A stretch of DNA of 64,000 nucleotides from an uncultured Chitinophaga sp. (GCA_966211525.1 CBIHOZ010000009.1:3901-67900), one strand, 5' to 3'. Numbered from the stretch's first letter, positions 44,635 through 60,843 are shown. A program made the numbers and translations. Notes: generated by a model not told the origin, from the sequence alone.

Positions 44635-44652
44635 AATCAGTTATAGGCGGTT

Positions 44653-45286: not shown

Positions 45287-45715
45287 TTGAGTATGACAGA
45301 GAAACTTCACATTGGCAGAAAAGTAGCACGCCTGCGCGAGTTACGAGGCATAAAACAAGAAACGTTAGCTGAACAGTTAGGCATTAGCCAACAGGCTGTT
45401 TCCAAGTTAGAGCAAAGTGAGAATATCGAAGATACTACGCTCGATCGCTTAGCAAAAGCATTGGGATTCACCTCGGATGCTATAAAGAACTTCAGCGAAG
45501 AATCTATACTATATAACATTCAGAATAATTACGAAGGTGCTACCAATAACGTTGTACAACAATATCAATGCACCTTCAATCCTCTTGATGAGTATAGGAA
45601 CGAAGTAAAAGAAAACAAACGCCTGAGCGAAGAAAATAAAAAACTATATGAATCTCTTTTGAAAGAGAAAGATGAAAAGATTGCGTTGTTGAAGAAGATG
45701 TTGGAGGGGAAGTAG
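45287..45715 (+). CDS. XRE family HTH transcriptional regulator
   Basis: RELRGIKQETLAEQLGISQQAVSKLE helix-turn-helix with a C-terminal coiled coil. Confidence 0.9.
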   Translation: MSMTEKLHIGRKVARLRELRGIKQETLAEQLGISQQAVSKLEQSENIEDTTLDRLAKALGFTSDAIKNFSEESILYNIQNNYEGATNNVVQQYQCTFNPLDEYRNEVKENKRLSEENKKLYESLLKEKDEKIALLKKMLEGK

Positions 45716-45747: not shown

Positions 45748-46374
45748 GTGATGACAACCTTAAGAGAGTTTGAAAAAGAAATTAGAGAAAGAGAAAAACT
45801 CCTTAAAAACATTCTTTTACACAAAAGGGATTTTGAATTTCTCAATACCCCTGGAACTCCTGAGCTTATTCGTTTTTTAGCAAAGCATCCTTTATTTGGC
45901 AGATCTAAAGATGCAATCTTCAAGCTTTTATGTATTGAAGTGCACAAACTTTTTTCCGATTTAAAATGCGACAAGTTCAAATTAACTCAACTACTAGAAA
46001 AGATTAAGGAAAATAGAAAAAAAGCAGAATGGAGCGACTGTCTCCAAAAACATGATATCGAACACGTAGAGAAGCTAATCACTCGAGGATTAAGAAATGA
46101 AGCTATAGCAGGACTTAGACGTTACAGGAATAAATACCTAGCACATACTGACATAGAAAAAACAGATGCAACATTTTTTTTAAGCCATTTTTACACGCTT
46201 ATCGAGACCGCATTGGAAGTTATCGATTTTTTGAGAAAGAAAGTTCTTAAAGAAGAATTTAACCTTGAACTATACATACCAGCAGATGGATTCGAAGAAT
46301 TTCGAAGTTTGGCAACAACAAATACTCAATCAGGGTCCCTCGTAGTTCCCAAGGCAAGTGACGCTAATACTTAG
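45748..46374 (+). CDS. HEPN-domain protein (AbiU2-like candidate)
   Basis: RNKYLAH matches the HEPN Rx4-6H motif in an all-helical ~200-aa protein. Confidence 0.6.
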   Translation: MMTTLREFEKEIREREKLLKNILLHKRDFEFLNTPGTPELIRFLAKHPLFGRSKDAIFKLLCIEVHKLFSDLKCDKFKLTQLLEKIKENRKKAEWSDCLQKHDIEHVEKLITRGLRNEAIAGLRRYRNKYLAHTDIEKTDATFFLSHFYTLIETALEVIDFLRKKVLKEEFNLELYIPADGFEEFRSLATTNTQSGSLVVPKASDANT

Positions 46375-46568
46375 TCAGTAAACTTTCAATTAATCATACC
46401 TAATCGCCATTTAGCCCCCATCACCCACTACAACTCTCAATAGCAGAATCGTTCAAGTAATTATATCTTAATCTAGCAATTTGTCTATACTATATGTGAC
46501 TAACGATTTTACTAAAAGACAAAGTGTAAATAACATTAAGATGGCCCATTCCTTTTTATCCGTAGAGA

Positions 46569-47006
46569 ATGCCCCACACAGAAAGAACAATCTGTGTAAC
46601 AGATTCTTTCCTCCGTCTCTTTATGTATTTGTTCATTGAAGCTATTAATAAAAGTGGACTAACGCAGAACCAACTTAACATCTATAATCATTATGAATTA
46701 GAGTTAAAGCAAGTGAACACCTCTTTCATTGACTTCAAACTACAGGAAATATATGAAGATACTGAATTAATGAGCTGGTATACTTTGGCTCTCGACACAC
46801 TATCTTCATCACTCGATTCGAATGGAAAGGCTATAGACAACAATTACTTAAATGAGATAAAAGAATTAAAAAAGAACGACAGTAACTACACCAGACCTAT
46901 TGAGATCGGCAAACTTAAAAACTTGATCAATGATTTATACTGGGTTCTTGGTAAAGAAAATATCTATCCGTCTGATGACTTTAAATGGTTCGAAAAACCA
47001 ATATGA
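46569..47006 (+). CDS. Hypothetical protein (immunity-like)
   Basis: 145-aa acidic cytoplasmic ORF; no family recognised. Confidence 0.6.
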   Translation: MPHTERTICVTDSFLRLFMYLFIEAINKSGLTQNQLNIYNHYELELKQVNTSFIDFKLQEIYEDTELMSWYTLALDTLSSSLDSNGKAIDNNYLNEIKELKKNDSNYTRPIEIGKLKNLINDLYWVLGKENIYPSDDFKWFEKPI

Positions 47007-47020
47007 CATTGCTCCTATAC

Positions 47021-47057
47021 GCACCATCACGGTCACTGGCCGCCGGGACTCTGATGC
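47021..47057 (+). repeat. Type-B hairpin repeat, degenerate
   Basis: GCACCATCACGGTCACTGGCCGCCGGGACTCTGATGC, 14 nt after the stop at 47006. Confidence 0.65.
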
Positions 47058-47058
47058 C

Positions 47059-47100
47059 TAGTAGCAGTATCGCTGTTTTGAGAAAGATATAGTTTGTAAT
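47059..47100 (+). repeat. Type-C 42-bp repeat, copy 1 (diverged)
   Basis: TAGTAGCAGTATCGCTGTTTTGAGAAAGATATAGTTTGTAAT aligns with 54132 and 54601. Confidence 0.55.
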
Positions 47101-47137
47101 TTCAACGTACCACGTTAGTAGACACTCCTTCTCCGCA

Positions 47138-47437
47138 ATGAAAAAACTGAAATCAATTTTAGGACTTTTAATAATTGCTTTACTCTCAGCTTCGTGTAAG
47201 AGTTATTACAACGATACAATTGACTGGATGGACAACATCGAATTGGGAACAAGCTTGGAGGACGTCAAGAGAAACCAACCCAACTTTGTTGAGATTGACT
47301 GGAGTAAACCTGACACACTTGATGAAGGATTAAGATTTAGAATTAAAAAAATTAAAGGGAGCAACGACATATTGAACATGAACCACTTTGTGGTGTTCTC
47401 TGACAATAAATATGCGGGACGAGAATCTATTAAATAA
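47138..47437 (+). CDS. Small lipoprotein
   Basis: Lipobox LSASC. Confidence 0.75.
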   Translation: MKKLKSILGLLIIALLSASCKSYYNDTIDWMDNIELGTSLEDVKRNQPNFVEIDWSKPDTLDEGLRFRIKKIKGSNDILNMNHFVVFSDNKYAGRESIK

Positions 47438-47463
47438 GATCATAGCGGCAGACATCAGTTTTT

Positions 47464-47570
47464 AAGTCTCCGAAGAGTCTCCCGCCTCGGGGACTCTTAC
47501 GGGAGCACGCACTTAGCAACAGGCAGCTTTTAAAAAACGCATAGTCCCGAAACGGAGACTATGCTTGGAC
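47464..47570 (+). repeat. Type-A 107-bp double-hairpin element, full copy
   Basis: AAGTCTCCGAAGAGTCTCCCGCCTCGGGGACTC...GCATAGTCCCGAAACGGAGACTATGCTTGGAC. Confidence 0.95.
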
Positions 47571-47661
47571 TGTCTTCTTCCCACGGGCCATAATATATCT
47601 GTCTACAAATGGATATAAACAATGAGATTGATATATTAGAATATTAGCGATAATATTTTAG

Positions 47662-48378
47662 ATGGGAATCTTCGACCTTTTCAAAAACAAGACAGCGGAA
47701 GACTACTTCGGAAAAGTAATCAGTTTTACGCTCGACAATATTAGCAAAGCAGTTTTGAGTAATTGCAAAAACGGTGATTATGTAAATCTTTGGACAAAGT
47801 CGGACATGGATAGAGTAATGATCTACGCACCAAATTCTATTGGTGGGTCTGGGCAATTAGGAGTGGTACCAAGCAAGTATGCTAAAATTATCAAAGCACA
47901 TATTCTTGGACAAAAAGATTATGGGATTTCCGGACCGTCAACAAATAATTATAACGCTTCAATAATAAATATATCTGGGGCAAGTTGTACAATCGGAATC
48001 AAGTTATACTCAACCAAAGAACACGAACGAATTATACAGGAAATGATTAATCGTGACAAGGCTGCAACAAAAGCGGACTTGGAGAAGAAGTATAAAATGA
48101 CCAAGCCTGTGGAAATTAAGTTTAATATAAAGAGAACTGACGTGACGAATTTTGACAACTTGAAACTTAAAGTCTTTGAGAAGGAATTTTATATTGAGTA
48201 TCCATATGACTTTAAACTACAATTAGTCGATGACCACAATCGAATTGTAGCTGAAACGGTTTCGCAGAAGGAAAAAGTAACGAGAATTGTAAAAGGCTTC
48301 TATAACGGACAGAAAATTAGTATCACCAAAATTGAAAAAGAGCGTGACTATCTGAAAACCACAATAAGTGGTGAGTAA
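47662..48378 (+). CDS. Hypothetical protein (possible HIRAN-like N-terminal fold)
   Basis: 238-aa ORF; GDYVNL...VMIY...QLGVVP pattern is reminiscent of HIRAN. Confidence 0.6.
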   Translation: MGIFDLFKNKTAEDYFGKVISFTLDNISKAVLSNCKNGDYVNLWTKSDMDRVMIYAPNSIGGSGQLGVVPSKYAKIIKAHILGQKDYGISGPSTNNYNASIINISGASCTIGIKLYSTKEHERIIQEMINRDKAATKADLEKKYKMTKPVEIKFNIKRTDVTNFDNLKLKVFEKEFYIEYPYDFKLQLVDDHNRIVAETVSQKEKVTRIVKGFYNGQKISITKIEKERDYLKTTISGE

Positions 48379-48474
48379 AAAGAACTACTTAAAATAGATG
48401 AGTACAATCCATATGAATAACAATAACGAAATATATTTTGGAGACAAAAAAAATATATACCCGAGAAGAAACTT

Positions 48475-48526
48475 AAGTCTCCGAAGAGTCTCCCGCCTCG
48501 GGGACTCTGGCGGAAGCACGCACTTA
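48475..48526 (+). repeat. Type-A element, 3'-truncated
   Basis: Identical left hairpin; similarity ends after GCACGCACTTA. Confidence 0.9.
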
Positions 48527-48580
48527 TTAGCACAAATCCTTGTCGTGATGAGTTCTTAAATTTTAATAATTTATACATAC

Positions 48581-48787
48581 ATGGACTATACTGCAATATT
48601 TAAACAAACCTATAATGATTTATTGCCAGACTCCCTGGAGACCGCGCTAATTGCCATGAAGATTGCAGGTGCATCGCAGATAGACAGCATCAGAGTAGTG
48701 ATGTCTGAGCTAAAAATAACTCTTCGGGAAGCGGATGCTTTAATCCTAAATTCCAAGACTTGGGAGGATAAGAAGGAGTTAACTTAG
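48581..48787 (+). CDS. Small hypothetical protein (immunity-like)
   Basis: 68 aa, GASQIDSIRVVMSELKITLREAD...NSKTW. Confidence 0.55.
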   Translation: MDYTAIFKQTYNDLLPDSLETALIAMKIAGASQIDSIRVVMSELKITLREADALILNSKTWEDKKELT

Positions 48788-48850
48788 AAATTAAGGAACG
48801 ACATCGCTGACATATGGAGCGGTCCTGAATAGCAGTATCGATCATAATTA

Positions 48851-48957
48851 AAGTCTCCGAAGAGTCTCCCGCCTCGGGGACTCTGTCGGAAGCACACACT
48901 TAGCAACGGCCAGCTTTTCAAAAACGCATAGTCCCGAAACGGAGACTATGCTTGGGC
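48851..48957 (+). repeat. Type-A element, full copy
   Basis: Both hairpins identical to the 47464 copy. Confidence 0.95.
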
Positions 48958-48997
48958 ACCAACGCTCAATATTTCTTTTTGAAACTTAGAGAGAAAG

Positions 48998-49879
48998 ATG
49001 AAAAAAATCATAATTGCAATTCTTGTTAGTATACTTTTCTCAAGTTGTTTTATTGGTGCAGGTACTCATGGAAAAATAGAAAGTTACCAACTGCCTTATT
49101 CTAATGAACATATTGTTAACGCTGTCGATCAATTTCTTTTAGCTAATCCTTTGTATTTTGAAAGTACTGAAGATAATGGTTGGATTTACATTAAGATACC
49201 TCCAGAGAACAACAGATTCGGATTCACCATTGGAGGTCAATCTGAAATCGTGTTAATAGCGGTAGGCAAAGAAAACGAAACAACTAAATGGAATAAAGAT
49301 CTCTCGTCTTCAGAGAAGAGAACGTTCTCTGAAATCTTCAAAGAGAAATTCGTAAACAAATTACACCCTGCAACTACATCTGAAGATTTACTTAAAAGCC
49401 CCTTTACTCTTACCATTAATAACAATGCGGATGCTGATTTATGGCCAGAGTATATTTTTACATCGGAGACACTAATAAGCTACCCGCTACCTTTTGAATT
49501 TGATAGTTTGAAACTTGATTACTTCGAGGATCTAGTTGTATCCTTTAGCAAACAGATAGGGCGTCAAATACAGGTAAATCAATTTTACAATATTTTCAGG
49601 ATAGACAAAGATTACTCAGGTTACATTGCAGACAGTATTTATATTACCAAGCTGTATCGCACAATAGGATGTAACAAAAAGGCCATAACCATTTTTGATA
49701 ACATTGCATGGGGCCAGTATATAGATGTTAAAAATCAACGTAACAGAATTCAAGACTATAAAAGATTACGCAAACAAAAAACAGAAAGAGGATATAGAGA
49801 AACAGATGTTTACTCTGAATTTTCAGAAGAACGCTGGATGCTGAGTGATAGACATCTAATTCGCAATCAAGATGATTGA
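48998..49879 (+). CDS. Lipoprotein, unknown function
   Basis: Lipobox LFSSC. Confidence 0.75.
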   Translation: MKKIIIAILVSILFSSCFIGAGTHGKIESYQLPYSNEHIVNAVDQFLLANPLYFESTEDNGWIYIKIPPENNRFGFTIGGQSEIVLIAVGKENETTKWNKDLSSSEKRTFSEIFKEKFVNKLHPATTSEDLLKSPFTLTINNNADADLWPEYIFTSETLISYPLPFEFDSLKLDYFEDLVVSFSKQIGRQIQVNQFYNIFRIDKDYSGYIADSIYITKLYRTIGCNKKAITIFDNIAWGQYIDVKNQRNRIQDYKRLRKQKTERGYRETDVYSEFSEERWMLSDRHLIRNQDD

Positions 49880-49888
49880 TGTTCTGAC

Positions 49889-49998
49889 GCACCATCAGAG
49901 TCACCGGGCCCGTCTCGGTGACTCTGGCCGAAGCACGCACTTAGCAACAGGCGCTCTTCAAAAGAAGCATAGTCCCGAAACGGAGACTATGCTTGGAC
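49889..49998 (+). repeat. Hybrid element: type-B left hairpin plus type-A right part
   Basis: GCACCATCAGAGTCACCG...CGGTGACTCT followed by GGCCGAAGCACGCACTTAGCAACAGGC...GCATAGTCCCGAAACGGAGACTATGCTTGGAC. Confidence 0.92.
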
Positions 49999-50224
49999 AG
50001 CAAGTGATTCTAAAGCAATCTTCCCTATTCGTTTTTCAAGCATAAAAAACTTCATTTTATTTTACCCATACGTTAACCATTAACGAGGTATTAATATTTA
50101 CATGTTGATAGTATAAGAGTAATTACCGGTAGAATAATTTGAGCAAAACCTGATTTTCCCGGTATAGTATATCATACATAAATGCGTGTTATTGTGTTCA
50201 ACAAACTAAAATTCGTATTTCTTT

Positions 50225-51400
50225 ATGTTAAAAAAAACTACGCTACCAACACTTTGTCTACTGTTAACATTTGCATTTAGTTGTAACGACCAAAGTGTGA
50301 TTGAACAACATGATACTGTTGTCCCATTCGATCCCAGTACAACTACAACTCTACCGCATGATACAGGTACACCAGCCTATACATTTAAGTTAACAAGCCA
50401 GGCTAGTATATATGCAAATGTAAAAAGTACTTTTTCCAATATAAAAGTTGACTCTGACCTGGTTTCAGTTAACAACGAAGGTGTAAAGATAGCCGACTTT
50501 TCGCGTCTGGATAATATACCCGCTAATCTGGCATTTCTAAAAAATGTAAAAGTTTTTGATGATGAAGCAGGCACAATGCAGGCATTGACAAACGAGGAGT
50601 TTAGACAATTAATGATCAATCAGCTTAACGCTTGCGAATTTTCCGATGCGTTCAAGCAAATATTTATAGACTTCTACGATTACATCAAAAACACGATGCC
50701 TACTAAATCTTATGAATCTTTTAACATAAAATGCAATAGTTTTATGGAAAGGGTAGCTATAGGCGCTTCCGCATCAAAATATACGGAACTGGAAAAATTT
50801 GCAGTTGTTCAGGTCTTTGCTCAGTTAAGACAACTGGTAAAGTATACCTACGAAAATCCAAGCTCAGCATGGAATAACACAGCAAATGGACGTAGCAGCT
50901 CTGGTGGTTGTTTGCCTAAGACAAAAGATGAGTGGAAGGCCATTGCGGAGGCTGCATTTACAGGTGGAGTGATGGCAGGTGTTAGCTTAGGAATCAAAGG
51001 CATCGAAGCCGGTGCTATAGCAACCACTGCTGCCGGTAATCCTGTTGCCGGGGGCGTTGTAGGTGGGATAATTGGCTTTACAATTGGCTTTACCAGTGGT
51101 GCAATTGGCAGTGGCAGTGTAAAACTAATGTTTGATTGCTTATGGAAAAAAGCCGCCAGCTTAAATGTGCCATTAACAACTTTTGTTTGTAGCGGAAAGG
51201 TATATCAAGCTTACACCAATTCAATTCCAACTGGATGTGAAGCTGGAGGAAATAGCATTATCACACAACAGCCTTATCAAGATCATGTTAAACGAATGCT
51301 AAAAGGAATTTTTGAGTTAGGTGTTGTACCGAACGCAGGCAAACAAAAGATTAATGTTAATGTGGAGAATGACATTAAATTTGTAGTATCAAACTTATGA
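50225..51400 (+). CDS. Lipoprotein with glycine-zipper hydrophobic segment (candidate antibacterial pre-pro-toxin)
   Basis: Lipobox FAFSC (Cys20); NGR at residues 221-223; GxxxG-rich stretch at about residues 247-297. Confidence 0.6.
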   Translation: MLKKTTLPTLCLLLTFAFSCNDQSVIEQHDTVVPFDPSTTTTLPHDTGTPAYTFKLTSQASIYANVKSTFSNIKVDSDLVSVNNEGVKIADFSRLDNIPANLAFLKNVKVFDDEAGTMQALTNEEFRQLMINQLNACEFSDAFKQIFIDFYDYIKNTMPTKSYESFNIKCNSFMERVAIGASASKYTELEKFAVVQVFAQLRQLVKYTYENPSSAWNNTANGRSSSGGCLPKTKDEWKAIAEAAFTGGVMAGVSLGIKGIEAGAIATTAAGNPVAGGVVGGIIGFTIGFTSGAIGSGSVKLMFDCLWKKAASLNVPLTTFVCSGKVYQAYTNSIPTGCEAGGNSIITQQPYQDHVKRMLKGIFELGVVPNAGKQKINVNVENDIKFVVSNL

Positions 51401-51642
51401 AACGTGTAATTAGCTTTTTAGGATACTTCGTTTTCTTCTTGGTATCCTTGTACGCATTAAGTCATGTTAGATTTTTTTCTACAACTGCAATGAACATGTC
51501 AGAAACAAAAAATATAGCGTGGCTTATAACCACCTCATTTGTATTGAGCTTGGGTTATACATTGACTAGCGAGAGGATAAAAAGATTCATTGGCAATACA
51601 ACAAAAAAAATAGTAGACAAAAAGAAGCATGATCCGAACTGA
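51397..51642 (+). CDS. Two-TM small membrane protein (candidate immunity)
   Basis: ATGA overlap with the upstream gene; two hydrophobic helices and a basic tail. Confidence 0.6.
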   Translation: MKRVISFLGYFVFFLVSLYALSHVRFFSTTAMNMSETKNIAWLITTSFVLSLGYTLTSERIKRFIGNTTKKIVDKKKHDPN

Positions 51643-51655
51643 GTATCAGACCTGA

Positions 51656-51683
51656 CTCCATCAGAGTCACCGGCCGGTGACTC
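51656..51683 (+). repeat. Type-B hairpin
   Basis: CTCCATCAGAGTCACCGGCCGGTGACTC, 13 nt after the stop. Confidence 0.85.
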
Positions 51684-51744
51684 CTTAAGCCTGCCCCAAA
51701 GACACCCAATCTCCATTTCAAAAGTTGAGATAATATTTTAAATT

Positions 51745-51851
51745 AAGTCTCCGAAGAGTCTCCCGCCTCGGGGACTCTTGCGGAAGCACACACTTAGCAA
51801 CAGGCGTTTTTCAAAACACGCATAGTCCCGAAACGGAGACTATGCTTCGAC
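51745..51851 (+). repeat. Type-A element, full copy
   Basis: Both hairpins identical to the consensus. Confidence 0.95.
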
Positions 51852-51889
51852 TGTCATAATCCTTAAATTGTAATTTGATTTTGCCAAAG

Positions 51890-52066
51890 ATGAGAAAAGA
51901 GATTGTGACTGATTCAACTCCAAAACCAGATGAGTCCTCAAAAGAGGATATCATTGAAAGACTGATAATAATTGAGAAAATAAAGAAAGGCCGGCAGCAA
52001 ATAAAAGAAGGTAATGTTAATACTGAAGACCAGGCAAGGGTAAAGCTAGATAAATGGTTACGTTGA
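51890..52066 (+). CDS. Small putative antitoxin, orphan
   Basis: MRKEIV...EDIIERLIIIEKIKKGRQQIKEG...KLDKW; same family pattern as 44653-44826 (LI..EK...G..Q...G). Start placed at ATG 51890. Confidence 0.55.
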   Translation: MRKEIVTDSTPKPDESSKEDIIERLIIIEKIKKGRQQIKEGNVNTEDQARVKLDKWLR

Positions 52067-52097
52067 TTTTCCTTCTAACACAGTGGCATCAAATTTT

Positions 52098-52565
52098 GTG
52101 AAACACATCTCCTATCTATACTTACTTATACTGGTAAGCTGTACCACGACCACATCATCTCTTCAAGAAGAAGAGAAAAAACTTGTCGGAAACTGGAAGG
52201 AGCCAGTAGATAATGGAGCGATACAAGGGTCGTATATGGAGTTCCATGAAGACCGCACTGGTGTTTTCGGACCAATCATTAATGTTAAGGGCAAAGTCGG
52301 AATTGCACCCTACTTGTCGTTCCTAATGAAAGACTGGCGAATACAAAACGACACACTTTCTATTCAATTCGAAATGCAGCCGGGTTACGCGGTCTATAGC
52401 CCCGATGGAAAGAAAATCAGAAAAAACGATAAGCCCAGTTATGTCCGCTATATTGTTTGGGAGGTGTCCGACACAGTGATTGTCCTGGAAGATCTCGTTA
52501 GTGAATTTCCAGGCATAAAGGAACGTCTGAAAAAGTCGGAGAAAATGGAACTTTTGAATGAGTAA
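52098..52565 (+). CDS. Lipoprotein (lipocalin-like candidate)
   Basis: Lipobox ILVSC; LVGNWKE motif; GTG start at 52098 (52083 also possible). Confidence 0.65.
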   Translation: MKHISYLYLLILVSCTTTTSSLQEEEKKLVGNWKEPVDNGAIQGSYMEFHEDRTGVFGPIINVKGKVGIAPYLSFLMKDWRIQNDTLSIQFEMQPGYAVYSPDGKKIRKNDKPSYVRYIVWEVSDTVIVLEDLVSEFPGIKERLKKSEKMELLNE

Positions 52566-52572
52566 ATTGCAT

Positions 52573-52589
52573 CTCCATCAGAGTTACCG
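52573..52589 (+). repeat. Type-B hairpin, left arm only
   Basis: CTCCATCAGAGTTACCG, 7 nt after the stop. Confidence 0.65.
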
Positions 52590-52670
52590 TCCGCTATATT
52601 TTAACTTGTTCCGTATGCAAACCCATATATATACTAATGATATTTCTATATTAGGGCAAGCCCGCAGGCA

Positions 52671-53189
52671 ATGAACAACATCAGAAAAGTACTTAGAGCA
52701 AAGCACTGGCAAATTTTTTCAATTTTGATGGGTATCTCATTTATTCAGGGATCGAGTCAAGGGTCCAGTAGTGGGATAAGCACCATCTTCTATATTCTGT
52801 ACATCGTTATTTATATTGGCTGGCTTTTAGTGCTAGGCATGGGATTAAAATCCATGCGACTGAATGTCGCGATGAATTATGCGCTCTTTTTAGCAACAGG
52901 GATTGCGCTTATTACGGTGGTCGTTTCTGTTAAAATTTTAGAAACAATGGGGTTGCTGAACAACTTCGAAAATGATGCAATAGCAATACCAATGCTGGTA
53001 CTCATACTTACTTCGTTAATCATAGTTTGCAGTTTCATTGCAAAGAACTTAAAAATAAATGAAAAGGGAGAGGACATTGATATTAATGATTACTTCGGAG
53101 ACATTCTCCGCTTGATATTCTGGCCTATAGGTATATGGAGTATTCAGCCTCGCATAAATAGATTAGCGGCCAAGTTGATCAGTCACTAA
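52671..53189 (+). CDS. Four-TM membrane protein
   Basis: Hydrophobic segments; C-terminal FWPIGIWSIQPRIN. Confidence 0.75.
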   Translation: MNNIRKVLRAKHWQIFSILMGISFIQGSSQGSSSGISTIFYILYIVIYIGWLLVLGMGLKSMRLNVAMNYALFLATGIALITVVVSVKILETMGLLNNFENDAIAIPMLVLILTSLIIVCSFIAKNLKINEKGEDIDINDYFGDILRLIFWPIGIWSIQPRINRLAAKLISH

Positions 53190-53221
53190 CTGGGCTATAA
53201 TGCATCATTTGCCTTTGCTAC

Positions 53222-53246
53222 CCTATCAGAGTCACCGATCCTCTGA
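53222..53246 (+). repeat. Type-B hairpin, internally deleted
   Basis: CCTATCAGAGTCACCGATCCTCTGA. Confidence 0.65.
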
Positions 53247-53315
53247 ATTGAAATAAGAAGGACTTATAGAATGGAGTATAGCAAAAATCACATTTAAAGC
53301 GAAACAATTTTAACT

Positions 53316-53489
53316 ATGAAACAATCAATACTCTATATTGTGCTTGGCGCCTTAATCATCATTGGTGGATTGCGTCAAAATGAACACAGATTAATTCCAG
53401 AGTTTCTGTACTATATATTCGGGGGTATATCACTGATCTTTGGAATATATAAATTATTAACTAACGAGCCTGACGACAAGCAGCAATAA
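53316..53489 (+). CDS. 57-aa two-TM membrane protein (not in ORF track)
   Basis: Hand translation MKQSILYIVLGALIIIGGLRQNEHRLIPEFLYYIFGGISLIFGIYKLLTNEPDDKQQ; the TAA stop overlaps the next repeat. Confidence 0.6.
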   Translation: MKQSILYIVLGALIIIGGLRQNEHRLIPEFLYYIFGGISLIFGIYKLLTNEPDDKQQ

Positions 53490-53595
53490 GTCTCCGAAGA
53501 GTCTTCCGCCTCGGGGACTCTAGCAGAAGCACACACTTAGCAACAGGCAGCTTTTCAAAAAACGTATAGTCCCGAAACGGAGACTATGCTTCGAC
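53488..53595 (+). repeat. Type-A element, full copy
   Basis: One substitution in each hairpin relative to the other copies. Confidence 0.95.
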
Positions 53596-53665
53596 TTTAG
53601 CAACATTCCGTGTAATAGGCGACCTACATCGTTATACACAAAAAAACATTTTAGACTTCTGAACC

Positions 53666-54127
53666 TTGACAACAATACATCTCGTAACCGAAATAGAAGC
53701 CGATATATATACCTGTTTTGACGCAGCGCGTGATATTGACATTCACAAGCTCTCAACAAAACAAACAAACGAAATTGCCATTGCCGGTCGCACAAGCGGG
53801 CTTTGCGAATTAGGTGACATGATAACATGGGAAGCAACACACTTCGGAATAAGACAACAATTAACCGTTGAGATTACCAAGTTCAACCGACCTTACTTCT
53901 TTGAAGATAAAATGCTGAAAGGCGCCTTTAAAAGTATGCAGCACAAACATTACTTCGAAGAGAAAGACGGCAAAACCATAATGATCGATAAATTCGAATA
54001 TGAAGTTCCGTATAGTATAGCAGGTAAAATCTTCAATACTATAATTTTAAAGCGCTACATGACTTCGTTTCTCGTAACCCGAAATCAGTTTATCAAATCC
54101 GTTGTAGAAGCGAAACGAGCACATTGA
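53666..54127 (+). CDS. SRPBCC family protein
   Basis: FDAARDIDIH, WEATHFGIRQ, GAFKSMQHKHYF; TTG start. Confidence 0.8.
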   Translation: MTTIHLVTEIEADIYTCFDAARDIDIHKLSTKQTNEIAIAGRTSGLCELGDMITWEATHFGIRQQLTVEITKFNRPYFFEDKMLKGAFKSMQHKHYFEEKDGKTIMIDKFEYEVPYSIAGKIFNTIILKRYMTSFLVTRNQFIKSVVEAKRAH

Positions 54128-54131
54128 TGCT

Positions 54132-54173
54132 TAATAGCAAAAATCACTATCTTGATAAGATATAGTTCATAAC
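54132..54173 (+). repeat. Type-C repeat, copy 2
   Basis: TAATAGCAAAAATCACTATCTTGATAAGATATAGTTCATAAC, 4 nt after the stop. Confidence 0.75.
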
Positions 54174-54182
54174 ACGTAACAA

Positions 54183-54596
54183 ATGAAAAGACCTCAAGAC
54201 TTCTTTACAATCTATAAGCAATCGGCATGGGATAAGGACACCGAAGGCATGATTGCATTGTACCATGACAGCGTTGTGATTTTTGACATGTGGACGAAAG
54301 GGTATCAAACAGGACTTACAGAATGGTCTAGCGTAATCAAAAATTGGTTAGGCTCATTAAGAGACGAAAGTGTAAATGTGATCTTTGAAATGATAGAACT
54401 TCACGAAGGTAACGATGCCGGGTTTGGAAGTGCTTTAATTACTTATCAAGCCATTTCAACGAACAACACAATTGTAAGAAGCATGAAAAACAGAATTACC
54501 GTAGGGTTTATCAAACAGAAAGATGAGTGGAGAGTAATTCATCAACACACATCTGCTCCTATCAACTCCAACCTTGAAGCTATTTTGAATATCTGA
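54183..54596 (+). CDS. SnoaL/NTF2-like (YybH-type) protein
   Basis: IALYHDSVVIFD, WRVIHQHTSAP. Confidence 0.8.
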   Translation: MKRPQDFFTIYKQSAWDKDTEGMIALYHDSVVIFDMWTKGYQTGLTEWSSVIKNWLGSLRDESVNVIFEMIELHEGNDAGFGSALITYQAISTNNTIVRSMKNRITVGFIKQKDEWRVIHQHTSAPINSNLEAILNI

Positions 54597-54600
54597 TATT

Positions 54601-54641
54601 TAGTAACAAAATCATTATCTTGAAAAAATATAGTCTATAAC
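54601..54641 (+). repeat. Type-C repeat, copy 3
   Basis: TAGTAACAAAATCATTATCTTGAAAAAATATAGTCTATAAC, 4 nt after the stop. Confidence 0.75.
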
Positions 54642-54692
54642 CTCAGCCACCCCAGCATAAAAATTTTTGACAGTTGGTTTAAAACAAAAGTT

Positions 54693-55256
54693 ATGAGAAA
54701 ACTAGTTGCATCAATCAACATGACGCTCGATGGGTTTTGTGATCACACATCTGCAATTGCCGATGACGAACTACATCAACACTATACCGACCTGTTATTT
54801 AACGCGGGCGACCTTCTGTACGGAAGAATAACATACCAGCTCATGGAAGACTACTGGCCAACGGTAGTTAAAAATCCCACCGGCAATAAACGCACGGACG
54901 ACTTCGCTGTGATCATAGAAAACATTCCCAAAACTGTTTTCTCCCGAACGCTGAGTAATGTAAAATGGAAAAATGTAAAACTTGCCAAGAGAAGTCTTGA
55001 AGAAGAAGTTTTAGAACTCAAGCAATCGAACGATCATGGAGGTAAAGACATTTTAGTGGGCAGTCCGAGTTTAATTGCAGCGCTGACAAAACTTAATCTG
55101 TTTGATGAATACCAACTCTGCGTTCACCCGATTATAGCGGGACAAGGTTTAACATTGTTTAAAAATATAACCGACAGCATGGTTCTTAAACTTGTAAAGA
55201 CAAAAACACTTGGTGGTGGCCAAATAGTACTTTACTATGAGCCAGTGAAAAAATGA
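54693..55256 (+). CDS. Dihydrofolate reductase family (RibD C-terminal-like) protein
   Basis: NMTLDGF, LYGRITYQLM, DEYQLCVHPIIAG.G. Confidence 0.88.
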   Translation: MRKLVASINMTLDGFCDHTSAIADDELHQHYTDLLFNAGDLLYGRITYQLMEDYWPTVVKNPTGNKRTDDFAVIIENIPKTVFSRTLSNVKWKNVKLAKRSLEEEVLELKQSNDHGGKDILVGSPSLIAALTKLNLFDEYQLCVHPIIAGQGLTLFKNITDSMVLKLVKTKTLGGGQIVLYYEPVKK

Positions 55257-55410
55257 TTAGTCTTCTTTTATTCTCATCGTAACATAAGCAAAGTATATTC
55301 TTCGATTTAAGAATTAGATTTATCGATCCTGCTACCAAACATCAGAATTCAGGAGACCGATGACTCTAATGGGGTATCTAGATATATACTCCTACTCAAA
55401 TGCAATTGAT

Positions 55411-56013
55411 ATGTATAAAAAAATCCCTATAGCGTTAATAACATTCCGACTAGTTATTGTTCCAGTAATTTTAGGGCTAACCTATTATCTCAGAGATGAA
55501 GCACGGTCAATAGTACTTGTCCTAATGTACCTGGGTTTGATATCCGACATACTTGATGGAATTGTTGCCAGACATTTGAATGTTTCGTCTCCAGCCTTGA
55601 GGCGTTTCGATAGTCAGACTGATATGTTATTCTGGCTGTCTATAGGAGTAAGCACCTGGCTACTACATCCAGATCTTATTGCGAATAATAATATAGCAGT
55701 AATTACAATTCTTGCCATGGAAGTGATCTGCTATATGGTGAGCCTGCTAAAATTTAAAAGGGAAACCTGCACACACGCATTTCTCTCAAAGCTCTGGGGA
55801 ATAACACTGCTTATCGCTTTTACTTCTTTGATTGGATTTGACTATGCAGGCCTCCCTTTTGCAATAGCGATTACTGTGGGATTAGTTGCGCACATTGACA
55901 GAATACTGATCACGCTGGTCCTCCCGGCATGGACACATGATATACCAAGTGCTTATCACGCTTATCTTATCAGGAAAGGGATTCCGTTTAAAAAGAATAA
56001 ATTATTCAATTAA
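55411..56013 (+). CDS. CDP-alcohol phosphatidyltransferase family protein
   Basis: SDILDGIVAR...RRFDSQTD motif; start placed at ATG 55411. Confidence 0.85.
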   Translation: MYKKIPIALITFRLVIVPVILGLTYYLRDEARSIVLVLMYLGLISDILDGIVARHLNVSSPALRRFDSQTDMLFWLSIGVSTWLLHPDLIANNNIAVITILAMEVICYMVSLLKFKRETCTHAFLSKLWGITLLIAFTSLIGFDYAGLPFAIAITVGLVAHIDRILITLVLPAWTHDIPSAYHAYLIRKGIPFKKNKLFN

Positions 56014-56034
56014 TATACATTATCAAACTATACA

Positions 56035-56445
56035 TCATTTTGTTGTAATAACAGCCTTTGTAAGTCTTCCCCAAGCCACAAAAGCAGCTATACCAATAAA
56101 CACTATATTTATTCCAATATGCGATGCTTCCCCACGAGCAACGTGAAAAACAATCGCACACACCATCAGTACACAAAGCACTATAGCAGCTATTGGTGTA
56201 AGCTTCGGTTTGATGCGAGATAAAGATGGAAGAATTAACCCCATCGCCCCCAGTATATCAACTACACCGGTAAATTTCACGAACGCCACCGGCACCTGTC
56301 CTGTCCATGGCCACATAGTAGATAACTTCACAATAGGTTCAAACAATTTTGTAAGGCCGGCCCAGAGTAACATGCTTGCCAAAAGAACTTGTAGTATCCA
56401 GAGCACAATATGAAGGGTTTTCGATTTCTTCGGTTCAGTTGTCAT
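56035..56445 (-). CDS. DoxX family membrane protein
   Basis: LWILQVLLA, GVVDILGAMGLILP, FHVARGE; start placed at ATG 56445. Confidence 0.82.
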   Translation of the reverse strand: MTTEPKKSKTLHIVLWILQVLLASMLLWAGLTKLFEPIVKLSTMWPWTGQVPVAFVKFTGVVDILGAMGLILPSLSRIKPKLTPIAAIVLCVLMVCAIVFHVARGEASHIGINIVFIGIAAFVAWGRLTKAVITTK

Positions 56446-56572
56446 CTCACTATATATTTTCTTCGTTTGATGAGGCAAACCTATCTATATTTACTTTCGA
56501 ATGTATAGTACTATCCCAGCGGATAGCACTATCCTGATGGATAGTAACGGAAATTAAAATCAAGGATTAGAA

Positions 56573-56911
56573 ATGCTGACAACAGGGAGATGCCCATCGA
56601 ATATGCTTTCCATACGGGATGCTTTGGAAGCGTTGGAAGGAAAGTGGAAGCTGCTTATATTATTTTCATTGTCATCGGGACCAAAGCGTTTCAAGCAGAT
56701 ATCAAAAGAAGTGAACGGCATCACCGACAAAATACTTTCAAAAGAGTTGAAAAGTCTGGAGACGAATAAACTTATAAAGCGCGAGGTATATGATACATTT
56801 CCTCCGACCGTAGAGTACTCCATTACTCCGCATGGTATGTCACTTGAAAAATTAATGGACGAGTTACATTATTGGGGGCTAGCGCATCGGAAAAAGATTA
56901 TGGGCAAGTAA
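56573..56911 (+). CDS. HxlR family winged-helix regulator
   Basis: LEGKWKLLI, ITDKILSKELK, PPTVEYSIT; divergent from doxX. Confidence 0.9.
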   Translation: MLTTGRCPSNMLSIRDALEALEGKWKLLILFSLSSGPKRFKQISKEVNGITDKILSKELKSLETNKLIKREVYDTFPPTVEYSITPHGMSLEKLMDELHYWGLAHRKKIMGK

Positions 56912-57070
56912 ATATAAAAATCGCGGCTTCGGCAGACCTGCACATCTTGGAAACGTGGCGTCCTTTAAACATTTTTGTGATCGGGTAAGTCCAAAGCTTT
57001 TAAAGATGTAACCATACCAAACGAATCTGTTACTCAACCACTTTATTATACATCCTCGTCTTCGCATTTC

Positions 57071-58012
57071 ATGAACCTCATTCAAGTGACTCTCTCTGTA
57101 TTTCTACTCCTTTCTTTAATCCAGCCAACGCAAGCACAAGACACCCGCTGCGAGTGTTGCTCAAACTCATCGTTAAAGCTCAGGGAAGATTACGAAGCTA
57201 TTTTTCCACGCCTTGTTATCAAGAAGAACGGTATCACAGAAGTGATGGTCTATACGAGTCCTTCTGATTCCACTCAGGCGTCTGGCACGCGCTATAAGGA
57301 ATTAAAATTCAAGTTCGATCAAAAAGGACAGGTTATAGCCAGAGTACACTATAATCAAAACGGAACGCCTCATTCAATCTATGAGTTTGAAAGAAATGGT
57401 TCCGGAAAAATATTCAGGCAAACCTTTAGCTATCTGGACAGCGTTGAACAGAAGTCAATAGAACCGGCTGCACCAGAGATCACCGACTATTTCTATAACC
57501 TGAAGGATAGACTTATCAAAACTAAAAAACGAAATACAAAAGGTCAGGTAATGCCTGACATTATGAGCGACTTCACAAAGTATGAATATGATAATACAGG
57601 CCGTACTACAAAAGTAACGTCACAATATTATTATGGTGAAAATGGACCGGCTACTTCATCGCGTGTTGTTATCTATACCTATAAAGACATCCACGGCCAG
57701 TCACAAACCTTTATTGACGGCAAGCTCTTTATTACAACAAAAACACAGTATACCAAAGGCTGGAAGCCGCTAACAGAAATAGGTTACGATGGTGACTCTA
57801 TAACTTTTGAAAGTAAATATGAGTACGACCAAAGTGGCAAGCCGACACGCTATGAAACAAAAAGCACAACTATAACCAGCGAATGTCCGCATAGAGGAAC
57901 CTACACAGATGTATATAGCTATAATGGTGACGGGTTGCTCAGTATTTTATCGCATAGCTATGAAGATAAGAAGTGTGTGATGGTGTTTGAGTATAAGAGT
58001 CCTTCGCTGTAG
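57071..58012 (+). CDS. Secreted protein with YD-like repeats
   Basis: Signal peptide; YEYDNTG, YEYDQSG, YSYNGDG repeats. Confidence 0.65.
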   Translation: MNLIQVTLSVFLLLSLIQPTQAQDTRCECCSNSSLKLREDYEAIFPRLVIKKNGITEVMVYTSPSDSTQASGTRYKELKFKFDQKGQVIARVHYNQNGTPHSIYEFERNGSGKIFRQTFSYLDSVEQKSIEPAAPEITDYFYNLKDRLIKTKKRNTKGQVMPDIMSDFTKYEYDNTGRTTKVTSQYYYGENGPATSSRVVIYTYKDIHGQSQTFIDGKLFITTKTQYTKGWKPLTEIGYDGDSITFESKYEYDQSGKPTRYETKSTTITSECPHRGTYTDVYSYNGDGLLSILSHSYEDKKCVMVFEYKSPSL

Positions 58013-58027
58013 AGTAAACGCAATTTC

Positions 58028-58345
58028 ATGAATTATCAGTCGGTTAACCTAAACATTCACTACAACGCAGGGAGTGAAATCTGGAATAAAATTTCTTCCA
58101 TATATGAACGAATGGACGGATGGCTAGGCTTTGGCAGGGGAGGGAATGAAGGCGAAGAAGGAATCCCTTATTGGTTTAGCTATAACGAGACAGAAAAACA
58201 TATCTCTGCATCAGTAGAGCCTGGCGGGCTTTCGTTTTCAGGACTAATGGAGGACGAGGAATGGGAACTCTGGATTGCCAAATTAAAATCTATCTCATCC
58301 GATATTCTCGGATTTAAAGTTGTCGATCCGGAGACTGGATCTTAA
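58028..58345 (+). CDS. Small acidic hypothetical protein (immunity-like)
   Basis: 105 aa, Trp-rich and acidic. Confidence 0.6.
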   Translation: MNYQSVNLNIHYNAGSEIWNKISSIYERMDGWLGFGRGGNEGEEGIPYWFSYNETEKHISASVEPGGLSFSGLMEDEEWELWIAKLKSISSDILGFKVVDPETGS

Positions 58346-58392
58346 GCTTAGCTACATTTAAATAGCTATATTCGTTCATTTTCCATTCATCC

Positions 58393-59109
58393 ATGCAGTC
58401 ACAAATAAAGTATATTCTAACGCTTGTAGCACTGGTATACAGCACCATTGCGAATTCGCAACGAGGCCATATTTATGTTTCCGAAGACAATAAAGGTTAT
58501 ACGGATAGTGAATTTCTAAAGCTTTGGTATGCCTCAGGTGAATTGGTGAATCTTGAAATTGTTAACCGAAAATCTGACAGTCTTTTCTTTAGACTAAAAC
58601 ACCATGATAACGCCAGTTACCTGAAAGATATATTAAAAGGCAGTAACTCCTGCGGTAGAAGGAAAAGTAAACCTGTCGATCAAATCAAGAAGGAACTATT
58701 GGCAGGCCAACTAGCTACTATAAAGCTTGTCTCGTTTAAATATCCCGACACCGTCTTTACCTTAAGCACTCCGAAAAAAGATGGTAAAGTTGACTTAGAT
58801 GCTATGTTCGAAGTGAAGACGCTGGGAAAGGATATAGAAGATATACTTCTTGATATTCTTGTTAACTACAGAAACATTAGTAAAATAGGGCAAGTCATAA
58901 TGTGTTATGAACCCAGAAATGCCATTCTTTTCGTAGATAAGACTGATAATATTTTAGGCTATATTGAAATATGCTTTGGTTGTCAGAAATATATAGCGAG
59001 TGAAAAAAGTCTGCAGGATTTAAGTTTCTGTGAGGATAAGTTCGAAGCACTTCGAAAAATATTTATGGCAGCAGGGATAAAGTATGGAATGAATTATCTT
59101 GAGTATTGA
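58393..59109 (+). CDS. Secreted hypothetical protein
   Basis: Signal peptide; C-terminal CYEPRNAILF...EICFGC. Confidence 0.7.
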   Translation: MQSQIKYILTLVALVYSTIANSQRGHIYVSEDNKGYTDSEFLKLWYASGELVNLEIVNRKSDSLFFRLKHHDNASYLKDILKGSNSCGRRKSKPVDQIKKELLAGQLATIKLVSFKYPDTVFTLSTPKKDGKVDLDAMFEVKTLGKDIEDILLDILVNYRNISKIGQVIMCYEPRNAILFVDKTDNILGYIEICFGCQKYIASEKSLQDLSFCEDKFEALRKIFMAAGIKYGMNYLEY

Positions 59110-59119
59110 AATAATCTCC

Positions 59120-59170
59120 CAACAGTCTGGAGACTGTTGCCAATGCTGGCACAAGTCGGAGACTTGCGCC
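59120..59170. repeat. REP-like hairpin doublet
   Basis: CAACAGTC-TGGA-GACTGTTG and GGCACAAGTC-GGA-GACTTGCGCC. Confidence 0.8.
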
Positions 59171-59195
59171 GGTTAATTTAACGACCTCCAGGTCA

Positions 59196-59495
59196 GTGAT
59201 AATACCAACAATGGAACAAAATAAAAAGGAGTTTGACATTATTACCAATCAACCGTATATGCTGCAACAAACAATTGATTGGTATAATAACATTTATAAA
59301 ACAGATTTTGAACTTGCCCGCTTTGTAAGGGATGAGATCAACTTTGCTACTATAGTATATGAAAAAGCTTCTGATTTTGATGTATTTCAATTAGGCGCTA
59401 ACTATGGAAGGCAATGTGAGGCTTTTGATAAGACATTCTCATCTTCTATACCACCGGATTATTTTAACGATAAAACAAAATATCCAAAACAATAA
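59196..59495 (+). CDS. Small hypothetical protein (immunity-like)
   Basis: About 95-99 aa, acidic; start uncertain (GTG 59196 or the later ATG). Confidence 0.55.
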   Translation: MIIPTMEQNKKEFDIITNQPYMLQQTIDWYNNIYKTDFELARFVRDEINFATIVYEKASDFDVFQLGANYGRQCEAFDKTFSSSIPPDYFNDKTKYPKQ

Positions 59496-59733
59496 TCAAC
59501 AGCATCCAATCTCTAAATCTTCCGCATAATCAATTACGGATTACTCTATTTGATCCAGGGTTTCCCGATATCCATAAAAGTATAGGTTTATGGAATAAAT
59601 ATATAGGAATTGTTGCTGACAAAAATTGAAATTACCACAGGAAGACTACATCAAATTTTATTTTGAAAGAGTAAAATTTATAGTCTGCTATTTCCCTATA
59701 TTCATGGTTTCAATAACCCTTGTATACCAGCCT

Positions 59734-60843
59734 ATGAACTTCCTGAAAAACATCCTCAATAAAAAAGAGGAGCCTATCCAATCTTACCAAGACTTCTGGA
59801 ATTGGTTTCTGAAAAACGAAAGAGATCTGTATAAAGTCATGAAAGAAAATCGAAATGTTAAAGAGAAGTTTTTCAATGTAATTTCTCCAAAACTAGACGA
59901 GCTTCGTGATGGTTATCATTTTACTACAGGAATGTCTGACGATGATATAGTGACGCTAACAATTACTGCCGATGGCGTAATCGAAAATATAGTATTTGTA
60001 GAAGAACTGGTGCAGGCCGCTCCAACGATAAAGGGATGGACAATAGTAGCGCTCAAGCGACCAGTAGACGAGGAAGGAATGGATATTGAAGAGGTGGCGA
60101 TCGACATGGGTGGCTATACGTTCGAGGCTTCCAATTTATCCTTTTACGCAATGGAAGACGCTAATCCTGACGAAATAGATATTACGGTTGTATACGGTGA
60201 TGACTTCGATGAGAAACGCGCATCAACCATCTCCAGCGGCACCTCTATTTTCTTAGAACATTATCTCGGTGAATTAAGATTTGCAACGGCCTTCGACAAT
60301 ATAACTGTAGTGGGTAAAAGTGAAGCCGAGAAGGAACCGGTTCCTATATTGAAGCTCCGTGACTTTTTGATCTGGCGTGAAAAAGAATTCATAGAGAAAT
60401 ATGAAGGATTACGACATAATACCGAGAACGATACTTACTCTGGTTTTACAGCAGAAACAAAAGAGGGTAAACCTGTTATAGCAGTTATCAATACCGATCT
60501 GCTCGCGTGGGACAGCAAAGCTTCTCATCCCTGGATTGCCATTATTGAGATTAACTACAACGGTGTCGAAGACAGTGGACTGCCTGATGAAGAAACACTC
60601 CATTTGTTAGACGATATTGAAAACAAAATAACTGAACAGCTGCAGGATTTTGAAGGTTACCTCAATGTTGGACGTGAGACTTCAAACGACATACGCGCTA
60701 TATTTTTTGCATGCAAAGACTTCAGAAAGCCATCCAAAGTCTTTGACGAAATCCAACATACATTCGCAGACTCATTTGAAATAAGCTTCGGTATTTTTAA
60801 AGACAAATACTGGAAATCTTTCAGTCGATTTGAGGCCGCTTAA
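59734..60843 (+). CDS. DUF695-like protein
   Basis: FWNWF, LTITADG, C-terminal YNG..SGLPDEE..LLDDIE...GRET; start placed at ATG 59734. Confidence 0.7.
   Translation: MNFLKNILNKKEEPIQSYQDFWNWFLKNERDLYKVMKENRNVKEKFFNVISPKLDELRDGYHFTTGMSDDDIVTLTITADGVIENIVFVEELVQAAPTIKGWTIVALKRPVDEEGMDIEEVAIDMGGYTFEASNLSFYAMEDANPDEIDITVVYGDDFDEKRASTISSGTSIFLEHYLGELRFATAFDNITVVGKSEAEKEPVPILKLRDFLIWREKEFIEKYEGLRHNTENDTYSGFTAETKEGKPVIAVINTDLLAWDSKASHPWIAIIEINYNGVEDSGLPDEETLHLLDDIENKITEQLQDFEGYLNVGRETSNDIRAIFFACKDFRKPSKVFDEIQHTFADSFEISFGIFKDKYWKSFSRFEAA

Follow-up and report, generated by a model that had tools for sequence, protein, structure and literature searches.

The 64,000-nt stretch analysed here (GCA_966211525.1, CBIHOZ010000009.1:3901-67900; hereafter the window) carries, between the RNase Y gene rny and a TonB-receptor operon, an island of approximately 16.5 kb (~44.33-60.9 kb) in which ~27 small, unrelated genes are interspersed with palindromic repeat modules. 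We describe this island as a repeat-punctuated cassette array and file it under none of the integrons, the rAID-1 orphan-immunity arrays of the Bacteroidales, the repetitive extragenic palindromic (REP) elements or the loci exchanged by flanking homology. Judged from its core genes, the host of the window is an Ohtaekwangia (Cytophagales), a soil bacterium, and over the 10 kb up to the end of rny the window is 96.9% identical to a metagenome contig (L001), ~90.5% identical to O. kribbensis and 80.7% identical to O. koreensis. The rny gene (42696..44267, + strand; Pfam RNase_Y_N, KH and HD) forms the conserved left anchor and was the left neighbour of the array in all Ohtaekwangia loci examined. 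It is followed by a canonical + strand intrinsic terminator (44300-44327), at which, at ~44.33 kb, the variable region begins, and not at 46569 as had been proposed in an earlier reading made from the sequence of the window alone (the sequence-only reading). The right anchor (61141..64000, +) comprises a 243-aa gene and a TonB-dependent receptor gene, homologous to a pair found directly 3' of rny in outgroups. Between 46569 and 60843 the + strand carries 22 short open reading frames (ORFs) and the - strand DoxX, in agreement with the sequence-only reading, whilst the whole island has 26 + strand ORFs, its - strand holding DoxX and a small gene at 44858-45169. GC content is 36-40% at 44-60 kb compared with 41-45% in the core and flanks.

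The modules between the genes fall into type C, type A, usually with an inverted partner B, and a doublet D, together with many hybrid or decayed copies. Exact and near-exact searches recovered hairpin A (GAGTCTCCCGCCTCGGGGACTC) and hairpin B (GCATAGTCCCGAAACGGAGACTATGC) in five copies each, all on the + strand and with none expected from shuffles, and type C gave 12 matches against 0.95 expected. All three types named in the sequence-only reading were thus found, but A and C turned out to be variants of one architecture, with 10-nt inverted arms (ending AGAGTC and starting GACTCT) and a 12-nt GC-rich centre that is itself palindromic, and B is built like A but inverted, each of the two carrying a one-base bulge. 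The flanks of the palindrome read CCATC/CCGAAG...GATGC/GGCGG, the spacing of the arms runs from 10 to 21 nt in some copies, and the fold z-scores of the repeats are about -4.1 to -4.6 on either strand. The best-preserved unit is ~200 nt long and consists of C, the flank TAGTAGCAGAAT..., A, a linker and B (window 51656-51855; also in L008). There is one site per cassette, placed 5-25 nt 3' of the stop codon, which supports the layout of ORF-repeat-ORF in one orientation that had been read from the sequence; the co-orientation of the repeats holds for every copy of A and B but fails for one C site, which is inverted.

From left to right, the right part of a decayed C site (46439..46480, +; nhmmer and alignment) precedes cassette O1 (46569..47006, +; 145 aa, family F22), which is 94% identical in amino acids to its counterpart in L001, where that gene lies downstream of F6. 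A full C site with the hairpin CATCACGGTCACTGGCCGCCGGGACTCTGATG and the flank TAGTAGCAG follows (47015..47105, +; nhmmer E 6e-25), and then O2 (47138..47437, +), encoding a 99-aa lipoprotein, an A+B module (47457..47574, +; exact and profile searches), O3 (47662..48378, +; 238 aa), an A hairpin without B (48471..48530, +; exact and profile searches), O4 (48581..48787, +; 68 aa, F15) and a further A+B module (48844..48959, +; profile search) with a relic of the C right flank before it at 48810-48845. Cassette O5 (48998..49879, +; a 293-aa lipoprotein, F16) is followed by a hybrid site with a C-type left arm and stem and an A-type right flank, then B (49884..50000, +; profile search), and the two-gene cassette of O6 (a 391-aa lipoprotein) and O7 (an 81-aa membrane protein; 50225..51642, +), common to O. 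kribbensis and others, by the near-complete composite (51656..51855, +; C at 51656-51683 and A+B at 51738-51855; profile searches). Cassettes O8-O11 (51875..53489, +), with decayed C sites (52566-52594 and 53213-53237, +; profile search) and a promoter-like box (the P-box, see below) within them, are closed by an A+B module (53484..53598, +; exact and profile searches). Older, widespread cassettes encoding SRPBCC-like, NTF2/SnoaL_3 and RibD_C proteins (53666..55256, +) come next, with truncated C sites between them (54125-54170 and 54592-54637, +; profile search) that are intact in O. kribbensis; the SRPBCC-type assignment, that of O12, comes from a weak, sub-threshold Pfam match. The inverted C site (55319..55381, -; profile search) leads into the distal variable genes (55360..59109), namely a CDP-alcohol phosphatidyltransferase, DoxX (-), HxlR and ORFs of 313, 105 and 238 aa, and these are followed by the D doublet of two short hairpins, CAACAGTCTGGAGACTGTTG and GCACAAGTCGGAGACTTGCGC (59115..59175, +), and by the closing units, an ORF of 99 aa and the gene for a DUF695 protein of 405 aa (59196..60843, +). 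This doublet, already seen at 59.1 kb in the sequence-only reading, is real and recurs in O. kribbensis, where locus L023 has two copies. The start codon assigned to the phosphatidyltransferase ORF is an ATG within the inverted C site (55360-55381); translation may really begin downstream of it, where the gene call of O. kribbensis puts the start.

Three array-less outgroups were compared (L012/L013, RNase Y 93% identical; L026, 91%; and Chryseolinea soli L027, 92%). In these a gene of ~245 aa comes within 150-270 nt of rny, with genes for a CarboxypepD_reg/TonB receptor and DUF4249 behind it and no repeats present; the pair at 61141-64000 of the window is homologous to the outgroup pair at 31% amino acid identity and hence fast-evolving. 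Since rny stands directly before the TonB operon in the outgroups, everything from ~44.33 to 60.9 kb is lineage-specific and was added in this lineage; we take the island to have been built in the Ohtaekwangia kribbensis/koreensis clade, between rny and the 245-aa/TonB-receptor operon.

The repeats are equally restricted. An exact 20-mer of hairpin B occurred at only five loci in 185,579 species genomes, four of them in arrays adjoining rny (two in O. kribbensis, from a single array split over two contigs, and one each in O. koreensis and a related metagenome-assembled genome) and the fifth in Chryseolinea lacunae; in 241 million metagenome records it was present on a single contig. Wherever the B repeat was seen in an Ohtaekwangia genome, it lay in an array downstream of rny. 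Profile searches found no repeat copy in window positions 1-46 kb, core sequence included, bearing out the earlier statement that the 44 kb of core genome lacks them, and none outside arrays in core or flanking DNA; the B 20-mer scan likewise found none outside the arrays of O. kribbensis and O. koreensis, and pattern scans found none in viral contigs (three patterns), plasmids or phages. Confinement of the 20-mer to a few array loci argues that the repeat is not a dispersed REP element or miniature inverted-repeat transposable element (MITE). The Chryseolinea lacunae copy (L003 7768-7794) is a lone exact hairpin B in a region of 52% GC, without an A or C partner.

These searches bear on the idea that the modules are selfish elements resembling REP sequences, bacterial interspersed mosaic elements (BIMEs) or MITEs, the A+B inverted doublet being moved by a REP-associated tyrosine transposase (RAYT) or an IS200/IS605-type HUH enzyme. 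The modules do share with REP/BIME/REPIN elements and their RAYTs the bulged, imperfect palindromes, the inverted doublets and the placement after stop codons, B being an inverted A-like hairpin with the same one-base bulge and the composite C...B having ends that resemble inverted terminal repeats. Against this, there are fewer than 20 copies within an array, and they lie at one locus rather than as hundreds of dispersed copies; all but one family have the same orientation, module variants travel with cassettes, and neither a Y1 transposase nor a RAYT was seen in the window or the related loci. The tag families of REP elements are described in PMC3733652, and neither GTAG nor CGTC was found at the foot of the palindrome. 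A PATE, an element derived from IS200/IS605, has left and right subterminal hairpins on a single strand that bound a mobile unit inserting 3' of a fixed tetra- or pentanucleotide; the hairpins here are co-oriented and the unit boundaries lie inside or at the edges of the hairpins, not outside them; the left flank of C has a conserved TTGAY, but no cleavage motif is definable. The resemblance to HUH/REP-type hairpins pointed out in the sequence-only reading therefore stands for the hairpin architecture and for nothing beyond it. We consider it improbable that the modules are such elements, and equally improbable the corollary that they spread between the genes of an island whose variability has other causes. 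Neither of the two patterns that had been named as contradicting a cassette system was encountered: in the DNA examined no copy of the repeats was found outside arrays, and relatives did not keep one gene content and differ just in having or lacking the repeats.

Textbooks give integrons as the means by which bacteria store and reshuffle genes one at a time, and the layout alone would fit a classical integron array or a CALIN, in which attC sites are clustered and an integrase is lacking. As in the sedentary integrons and CALINs, of which the Vibrio array with its VCR repeats is an example, mostly small, unrelated and co-oriented genes, often without a known function, are each followed by a structured repeat of ~60-130 nt, the repeats of a lineage are much alike, content varies between close strains, and toxin-antitoxin genes and some pseudogene cassettes are present. 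In contrast, the array has no R or L boxes and no intI, attI or Pc, several of its cassettes carry their own promoter-like box, its sites are of at least four types, often in tandem, its junctions are often irregular, and the only crossover that could be mapped lies at the centre of a palindrome and not at its base. No RYYYAAC/GTTRRRY boxes were present in any repeat, just as had been stated earlier, and the 16.7-kb island held two attC-type box pairs against 4.0 +/- 1.8 in shuffles, none of them intergenic. Nor does the palindrome have, as an attC site does, an unpaired spacer at its centre with R and L boxes on either side; no intI was detected in the window, and an Rfam scan of 44-64 kb returned chance-level matches only. 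Mismatches in the stems comprised 17 G.T and 16 A.C, without strand bias, and only one compensatory pair; this test neither favours nor rules out hairpins of single-stranded DNA or RNA. A classical integron or CALIN is accordingly the least credible of the explanations weighed, and we regard it as extremely unlikely.

About 12 related arrays were found via RNase Y contigs, their ORFs were clustered and their modules mapped. They follow a common plan of rny, optional toxin-antitoxin pairs, F2 on the - strand, F3, a strain-specific gene, module-separated cassettes and an older distal part (NTF2, RibD_C) that is common to most arrays. Ten arrays contain ~65 gene families in all, 33 of which are found in at least two arrays and 32 of which are singletons, and five conspecific loci with core identities of 99.3-99.7% nonetheless have unrelated proximal arrays. 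Comparison of the rny-to-TonB-receptor interval between relatives, which the sequence-only reading had suggested, revealed gain, loss, replacement and reordering with breakpoints at repeats. In the window the 1.7 kb of O8-O11 are enclosed by two A+B modules, in place of which L009 has a single A+B module; a 179-aa lipoprotein gene lies between two inverted C sites in O. kribbensis strains where the window has a single inverted C site, although divergence here was too high to resolve the crossover of this insertion by fine mapping; and the one C site of L019 corresponds to a pair of C sites in L015, separated by 428 nt. Different genes occupy the space inside the same two A+B modules in L014 and L015, a right half-site plus F6 stands behind at least four different upstream cassettes, module variants travel with particular cassettes and tandem modules without an ORF between them occur. 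Cassette order is moreover cyclic, F22 standing before F15 in the window, F15 before F6 in L014 and F6 before F22 in L001, with orthologues 89-95% identical, so that differential deletion from one ancestral order cannot explain everything.

Public sequencing runs from soil and rhizosphere each held 10-35% of the sampled words of the array stretch 46500-54700. Joints in these runs fell at the full C site (47066->48851 and 47066->48536, runs X2 and X24), at 55367->56044 (run X24) and at 59175->59648 (run X1), in the last case with 714 other bases replacing the 99-aa ORF after the D doublet. Two further leads were set aside. The presence of the O. kribbensis array on two contigs was considered as a repeat-borne rearrangement and rejected, conspecific metagenome contigs being contiguous, and the NTF2 cassette was discarded as a marker of arrays, its family being widespread in Bacteroidota and, in Cytophagales WSM2-2, surrounded by ordinary genes and free of repeats. 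An apparent false join at A+B is present in the assembly of O. kribbensis CCUG 58938 (L007 ~5594 / L016 ~14650); in its contig 8 the end of the repeat coincides with an N, after which come core genes unrelated to the array, and its contig 3 (L023) starts inside the array.

Two scales of exchange can be distinguished at these loci. The O. kribbensis locus L017 and L009, which belongs to another species, share 80-90% identity in their first 8 kb, but identity rises to 98-100% at the end of pheT and stays there across rny and ~10 kb of the array (locus 8500-19000), an identity jump that demonstrates inter-species homologous replacement of a block of rny plus array; judged by these identities, the replacement is recent and includes rny, an essential-type gene. 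Within one species, shared cassettes may be only 91-93% identical when the core is 99% identical, and this is allelic replacement. At the scale of single sites, the one C site of L019 is a conservative chimera of the two C sites of L015, with the crossover within the 5 nt CGGCC at the centre of the palindrome, and two independent hybrids with C on the left and A on the right were found (window 49884 and L015 3748). These C/A hybrids are unequal, there are several half or internally deleted sites, F6 is joined to F22 in L001 without any site and L009 retains a 60-nt relic of O2. Such irregular junctions (hybrids, half sites, the relic and the site-less join) fit a precise site-specific system poorly, and fit untargeted breakage and repair.

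The explanation that we favour, although we would put it at slightly less than an even chance, is that this is a lineage-specific hypervariable cassette island shaped by host recombination together with breakage and rejoining centred on the palindromes. A unit consists of one gene or of two to four, some with a P-box, closed by a C, A (with or without B) or D module. Whole blocks, rny included, are seen to have been swapped between strains and even species by homologous recombination in the conserved flanks. Single units show the pattern of loss, gain or replacement between two modules with one module left behind, and here the palindromes would serve as recombination hot spots of the host machinery, with no dedicated integrase needed. 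Two routes are proposed, one by recombination between the 100-200-nt direct repeats and the other by breakage and rejoining at the centres of hairpins or cruciforms. The island resembles the minimal mobile elements of Neisseria and capsule or O-antigen loci, which likewise have a fixed site, strain-variable gene sets and recombination in the flanks, but its interior, unlike theirs, is split into dozens of units by palindromic modules and turns over by single units. Several observations count against this explanation. The one deletion that could be mapped cleanly, that of L019, has its crossover in 5 nt at the palindrome centre, with identical stretches of 17 and 15 nt just to the right of it, and C and A have recombined despite sharing only 6-nt blocks. 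Host recombination alone leaves unexplained how ~65 unrelated families came to have the same private modules at one locus, and the palindromic architecture is kept across diverged site families, which homology tracts would not need.

A rival explanation is an integron-like platform, in which C and A would be the sites of a dedicated recombinase encoded elsewhere, excising and inserting cassettes with crossover at the centre, and homologous recombination would merely spread the arrays. Such a platform would account for the single site that follows each cassette at a short distance from its stop codon, for arms and centre that are alike in A and C despite different flanks, for the chimeric site with its central crossover and the C/A hybrids, and for the alternation of one site with site-gene-site. 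The half-site plus F6 behind different cassettes, the cyclic order, the number of families flanked by modules and the tandem modules without an ORF would also follow. On the other side, no array has a recombinase in cis, and the unequal hybrids, decayed half sites and one site-less join speak against a precise enzyme. Shared cassettes are mostly collinear and diverged to about the level of the core (87-94% against 90.5% identity), which points to slow turnover, and the balance of stem mismatches with its one compensatory pair and the variable arm spacing also count against the platform. We rate it as a serious but rather doubtful possibility. As the sequence-only reading had noted, no recombinase is in view: Pfam searches found no tyrosine, serine or HUH recombinase in the island ORFs, in 20 core ORFs of the window or in the ORFs of the related loci, the precomputed Pfam annotation of 20-kb contexts of ~12 arrays contained no recombinase, and intI, Phage_integrase-type, Y1 transposase and RAYT genes were absent by Pfam from the 64-kb window and from beside the related arrays. 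A dedicated capture enzyme is possible and is not required by the present data. Were there one, the array could represent an undescribed cassette-capture system of soil Cytophagales, with private palindromic sites, a recombinase acting in trans and promoter-bearing accessory genes gathered at one site, a proposal that we think possible but on balance unlikely; the trans enzyme would be, for example, a housekeeping Xer-type, small serine or HUH recombinase, and the system would be an integron analogue independent of IntI and attC.

A described system of the same phylum is rAID-1, whose arrays hinted at a version of the integron peculiar to Bacteroidota. They consist of co-oriented short genes of low GC with conserved intergenic motifs (10.1101/471110; PMC12247911) and are defined by a XerD-like tyrosine recombinase on the 5' side, sharing 44% identity or more with BF9343_RS08045, and at least two co-oriented downstream genes of GC <=41%, close homologues of the recombinase being restricted to Bacteroidales (10.1101/471110). 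The 26 + strand ORFs of the window, at 36-40% GC, agree with the gene part of this definition, and the low-GC co-oriented genes of 100-300 codons and the intergenic motifs of rAID-1 (Ross et al. 2019, 10.1101/471110) recall the present array, the likeness lying in the presence of conserved motifs. Sister arrays furthermore carry domains of immunity type, namely SUKH_6/SMI1_KNR4, DUF4304 and a weak, sub-threshold match to MORN_2. However, the defining XerD-like recombinase is absent from all arrays, the host belongs to the Cytophagales and lives in soil, the array has a fixed place beside rny, most of the cargo has no match to an immunity family, and the domain of one cassette is linked in its relatives to HIRAN or an exonuclease. 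That the array is a member of rAID-1 whose recombinase has been lost or lies elsewhere therefore seems to us very improbable.

The locus shows the same architecture as these arrays in a different order, the Cytophagales, with unrelated sites and no linked enzyme; its empty site serves as a clean control, and natural variants are available by the dozen. Should there be a dedicated enzyme, cassette capture would have been invented here independently, and the new recombination sites might be useful as tools; should there be none, palindromic intergenic modules plus ordinary recombination can yield integron-like turnover, which bears on how attC-ORF cassettes may have arisen. Either way the arrays of this genus, a common one in soil and rhizosphere, are a reservoir of ~65 accessory gene families that are unknown.

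Signals for expression accompany the cassettes. The P-box, with the consensus AATGATATTCCTATATTAGAA(T)GTTG, is conserved upstream of O3 (AATGAGATTGATATATTAGAA; 47621..47641, +) and recurs within the O8-O11 block (52636..52656, +); all copies are on the + strand, 15-130 nt before the start codon (one copy at 0 nt), in front of six unrelated cassette families, and the box is also present in L009, L010, L014, L015, L004 and L008. The 42.7 kb of core contain none. The box probably acts as a promoter or operator common to these cassettes, and the helix-turn-helix (HTH) protein F3 encoded at the head of the array possibly controls it. The Bacteroidetes -7 motif TAnnTTTG was not found upstream of the cassettes, the nearest sequences being TATATTAG and TATTTTAG, upstream of O3 and O10 and within or beside P-boxes. 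On the - strand, hairpin B followed by GTTTTTT gave the top terminator-like matches of the region (47539-47564, 48926-48951, 51820-51845 and 53566-53587), whilst no + strand terminators were found between cassettes. Hairpin B thus reads as a predicted intrinsic terminator that would halt antisense transcripts at cassette boundaries, and the palindromes probably also punctuate expression. Metatranscriptome runs covered rny and left the array nearly uncovered, their contigs carrying no strand information and so being silent on transcript ends.

The cargo of the array is accessory, with toxin-antitoxin and Abi-like genes at its head followed by lipoproteins, membrane proteins, immunity-like domains and genes without known relatives. 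The head begins with two orphan antitoxin-like genes (44404..44826, +), a DUF6364 gene (76 aa) and a 57-aa ORF (families F13 and F21); no toxins lie beside them, and relatives have at the same place DUF6364 with PIN or a 59-aa gene with ParE. The divergent F2 gene (44858..45169, -), conserved at every array head, encodes a 103-aa three-helix protein and is followed by F3 (45287..45715, +), an XRE-family HTH gene likewise conserved at the head. F2 was considered as a hidden recombination factor and rejected, the protein being restricted to the clade (nine clusters), modelled as three helices at a pLDDT of 64 and without a fold match among solved structures. The first variable unit is a HEPN AbiU2-like gene (45748..46374, +; Pfam HEPN_AbiU2, 3e-9), whose position holds other genes in L001, L009, L014 and L015; the strain-dependent gene after F3, of nuclease type, is elsewhere PIN_12 or encodes unknown proteins of 260-319 aa (L007, L014, L015 and L020), and with such exchangeable partners F3 looks like an antitoxin or regulator.

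Lipoproteins or secreted proteins in the window are encoded by O2, O5, O6, O9, O18 and O20, and small membrane proteins by O7, O10 and O11. NCBIfam gave nothing above noise for 20 cassette proteins, and there were no Imm-family matches among the window's own cassettes; in addition to the genes already mentioned, sister arrays carry PIN, ParE and PIN_12. The O3 protein is 98% identical in amino acids to that of metagenome contig L008, where the upstream neighbour is different, and belongs to an uncharacterised family of 95 clusters in which relatives of 370-520 aa fuse the domain to an N-terminal HIRAN domain or to an RNase_T exonuclease; these fusions hint at a role in nucleic-acid transactions or defence. 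The gene for the 391-aa lipoprotein O6 (50225-51400) is intact in the window and L009 and frameshifted in four relatives (L004, L014, L015 and L017), and in O. kribbensis SUKH_6/SMI1_KNR4 and two further genes are inserted before DoxX. Away from the island, the core region at 31394-32427 (-) contains two neighbouring paralogous DUF4199 genes of 156 aa each.

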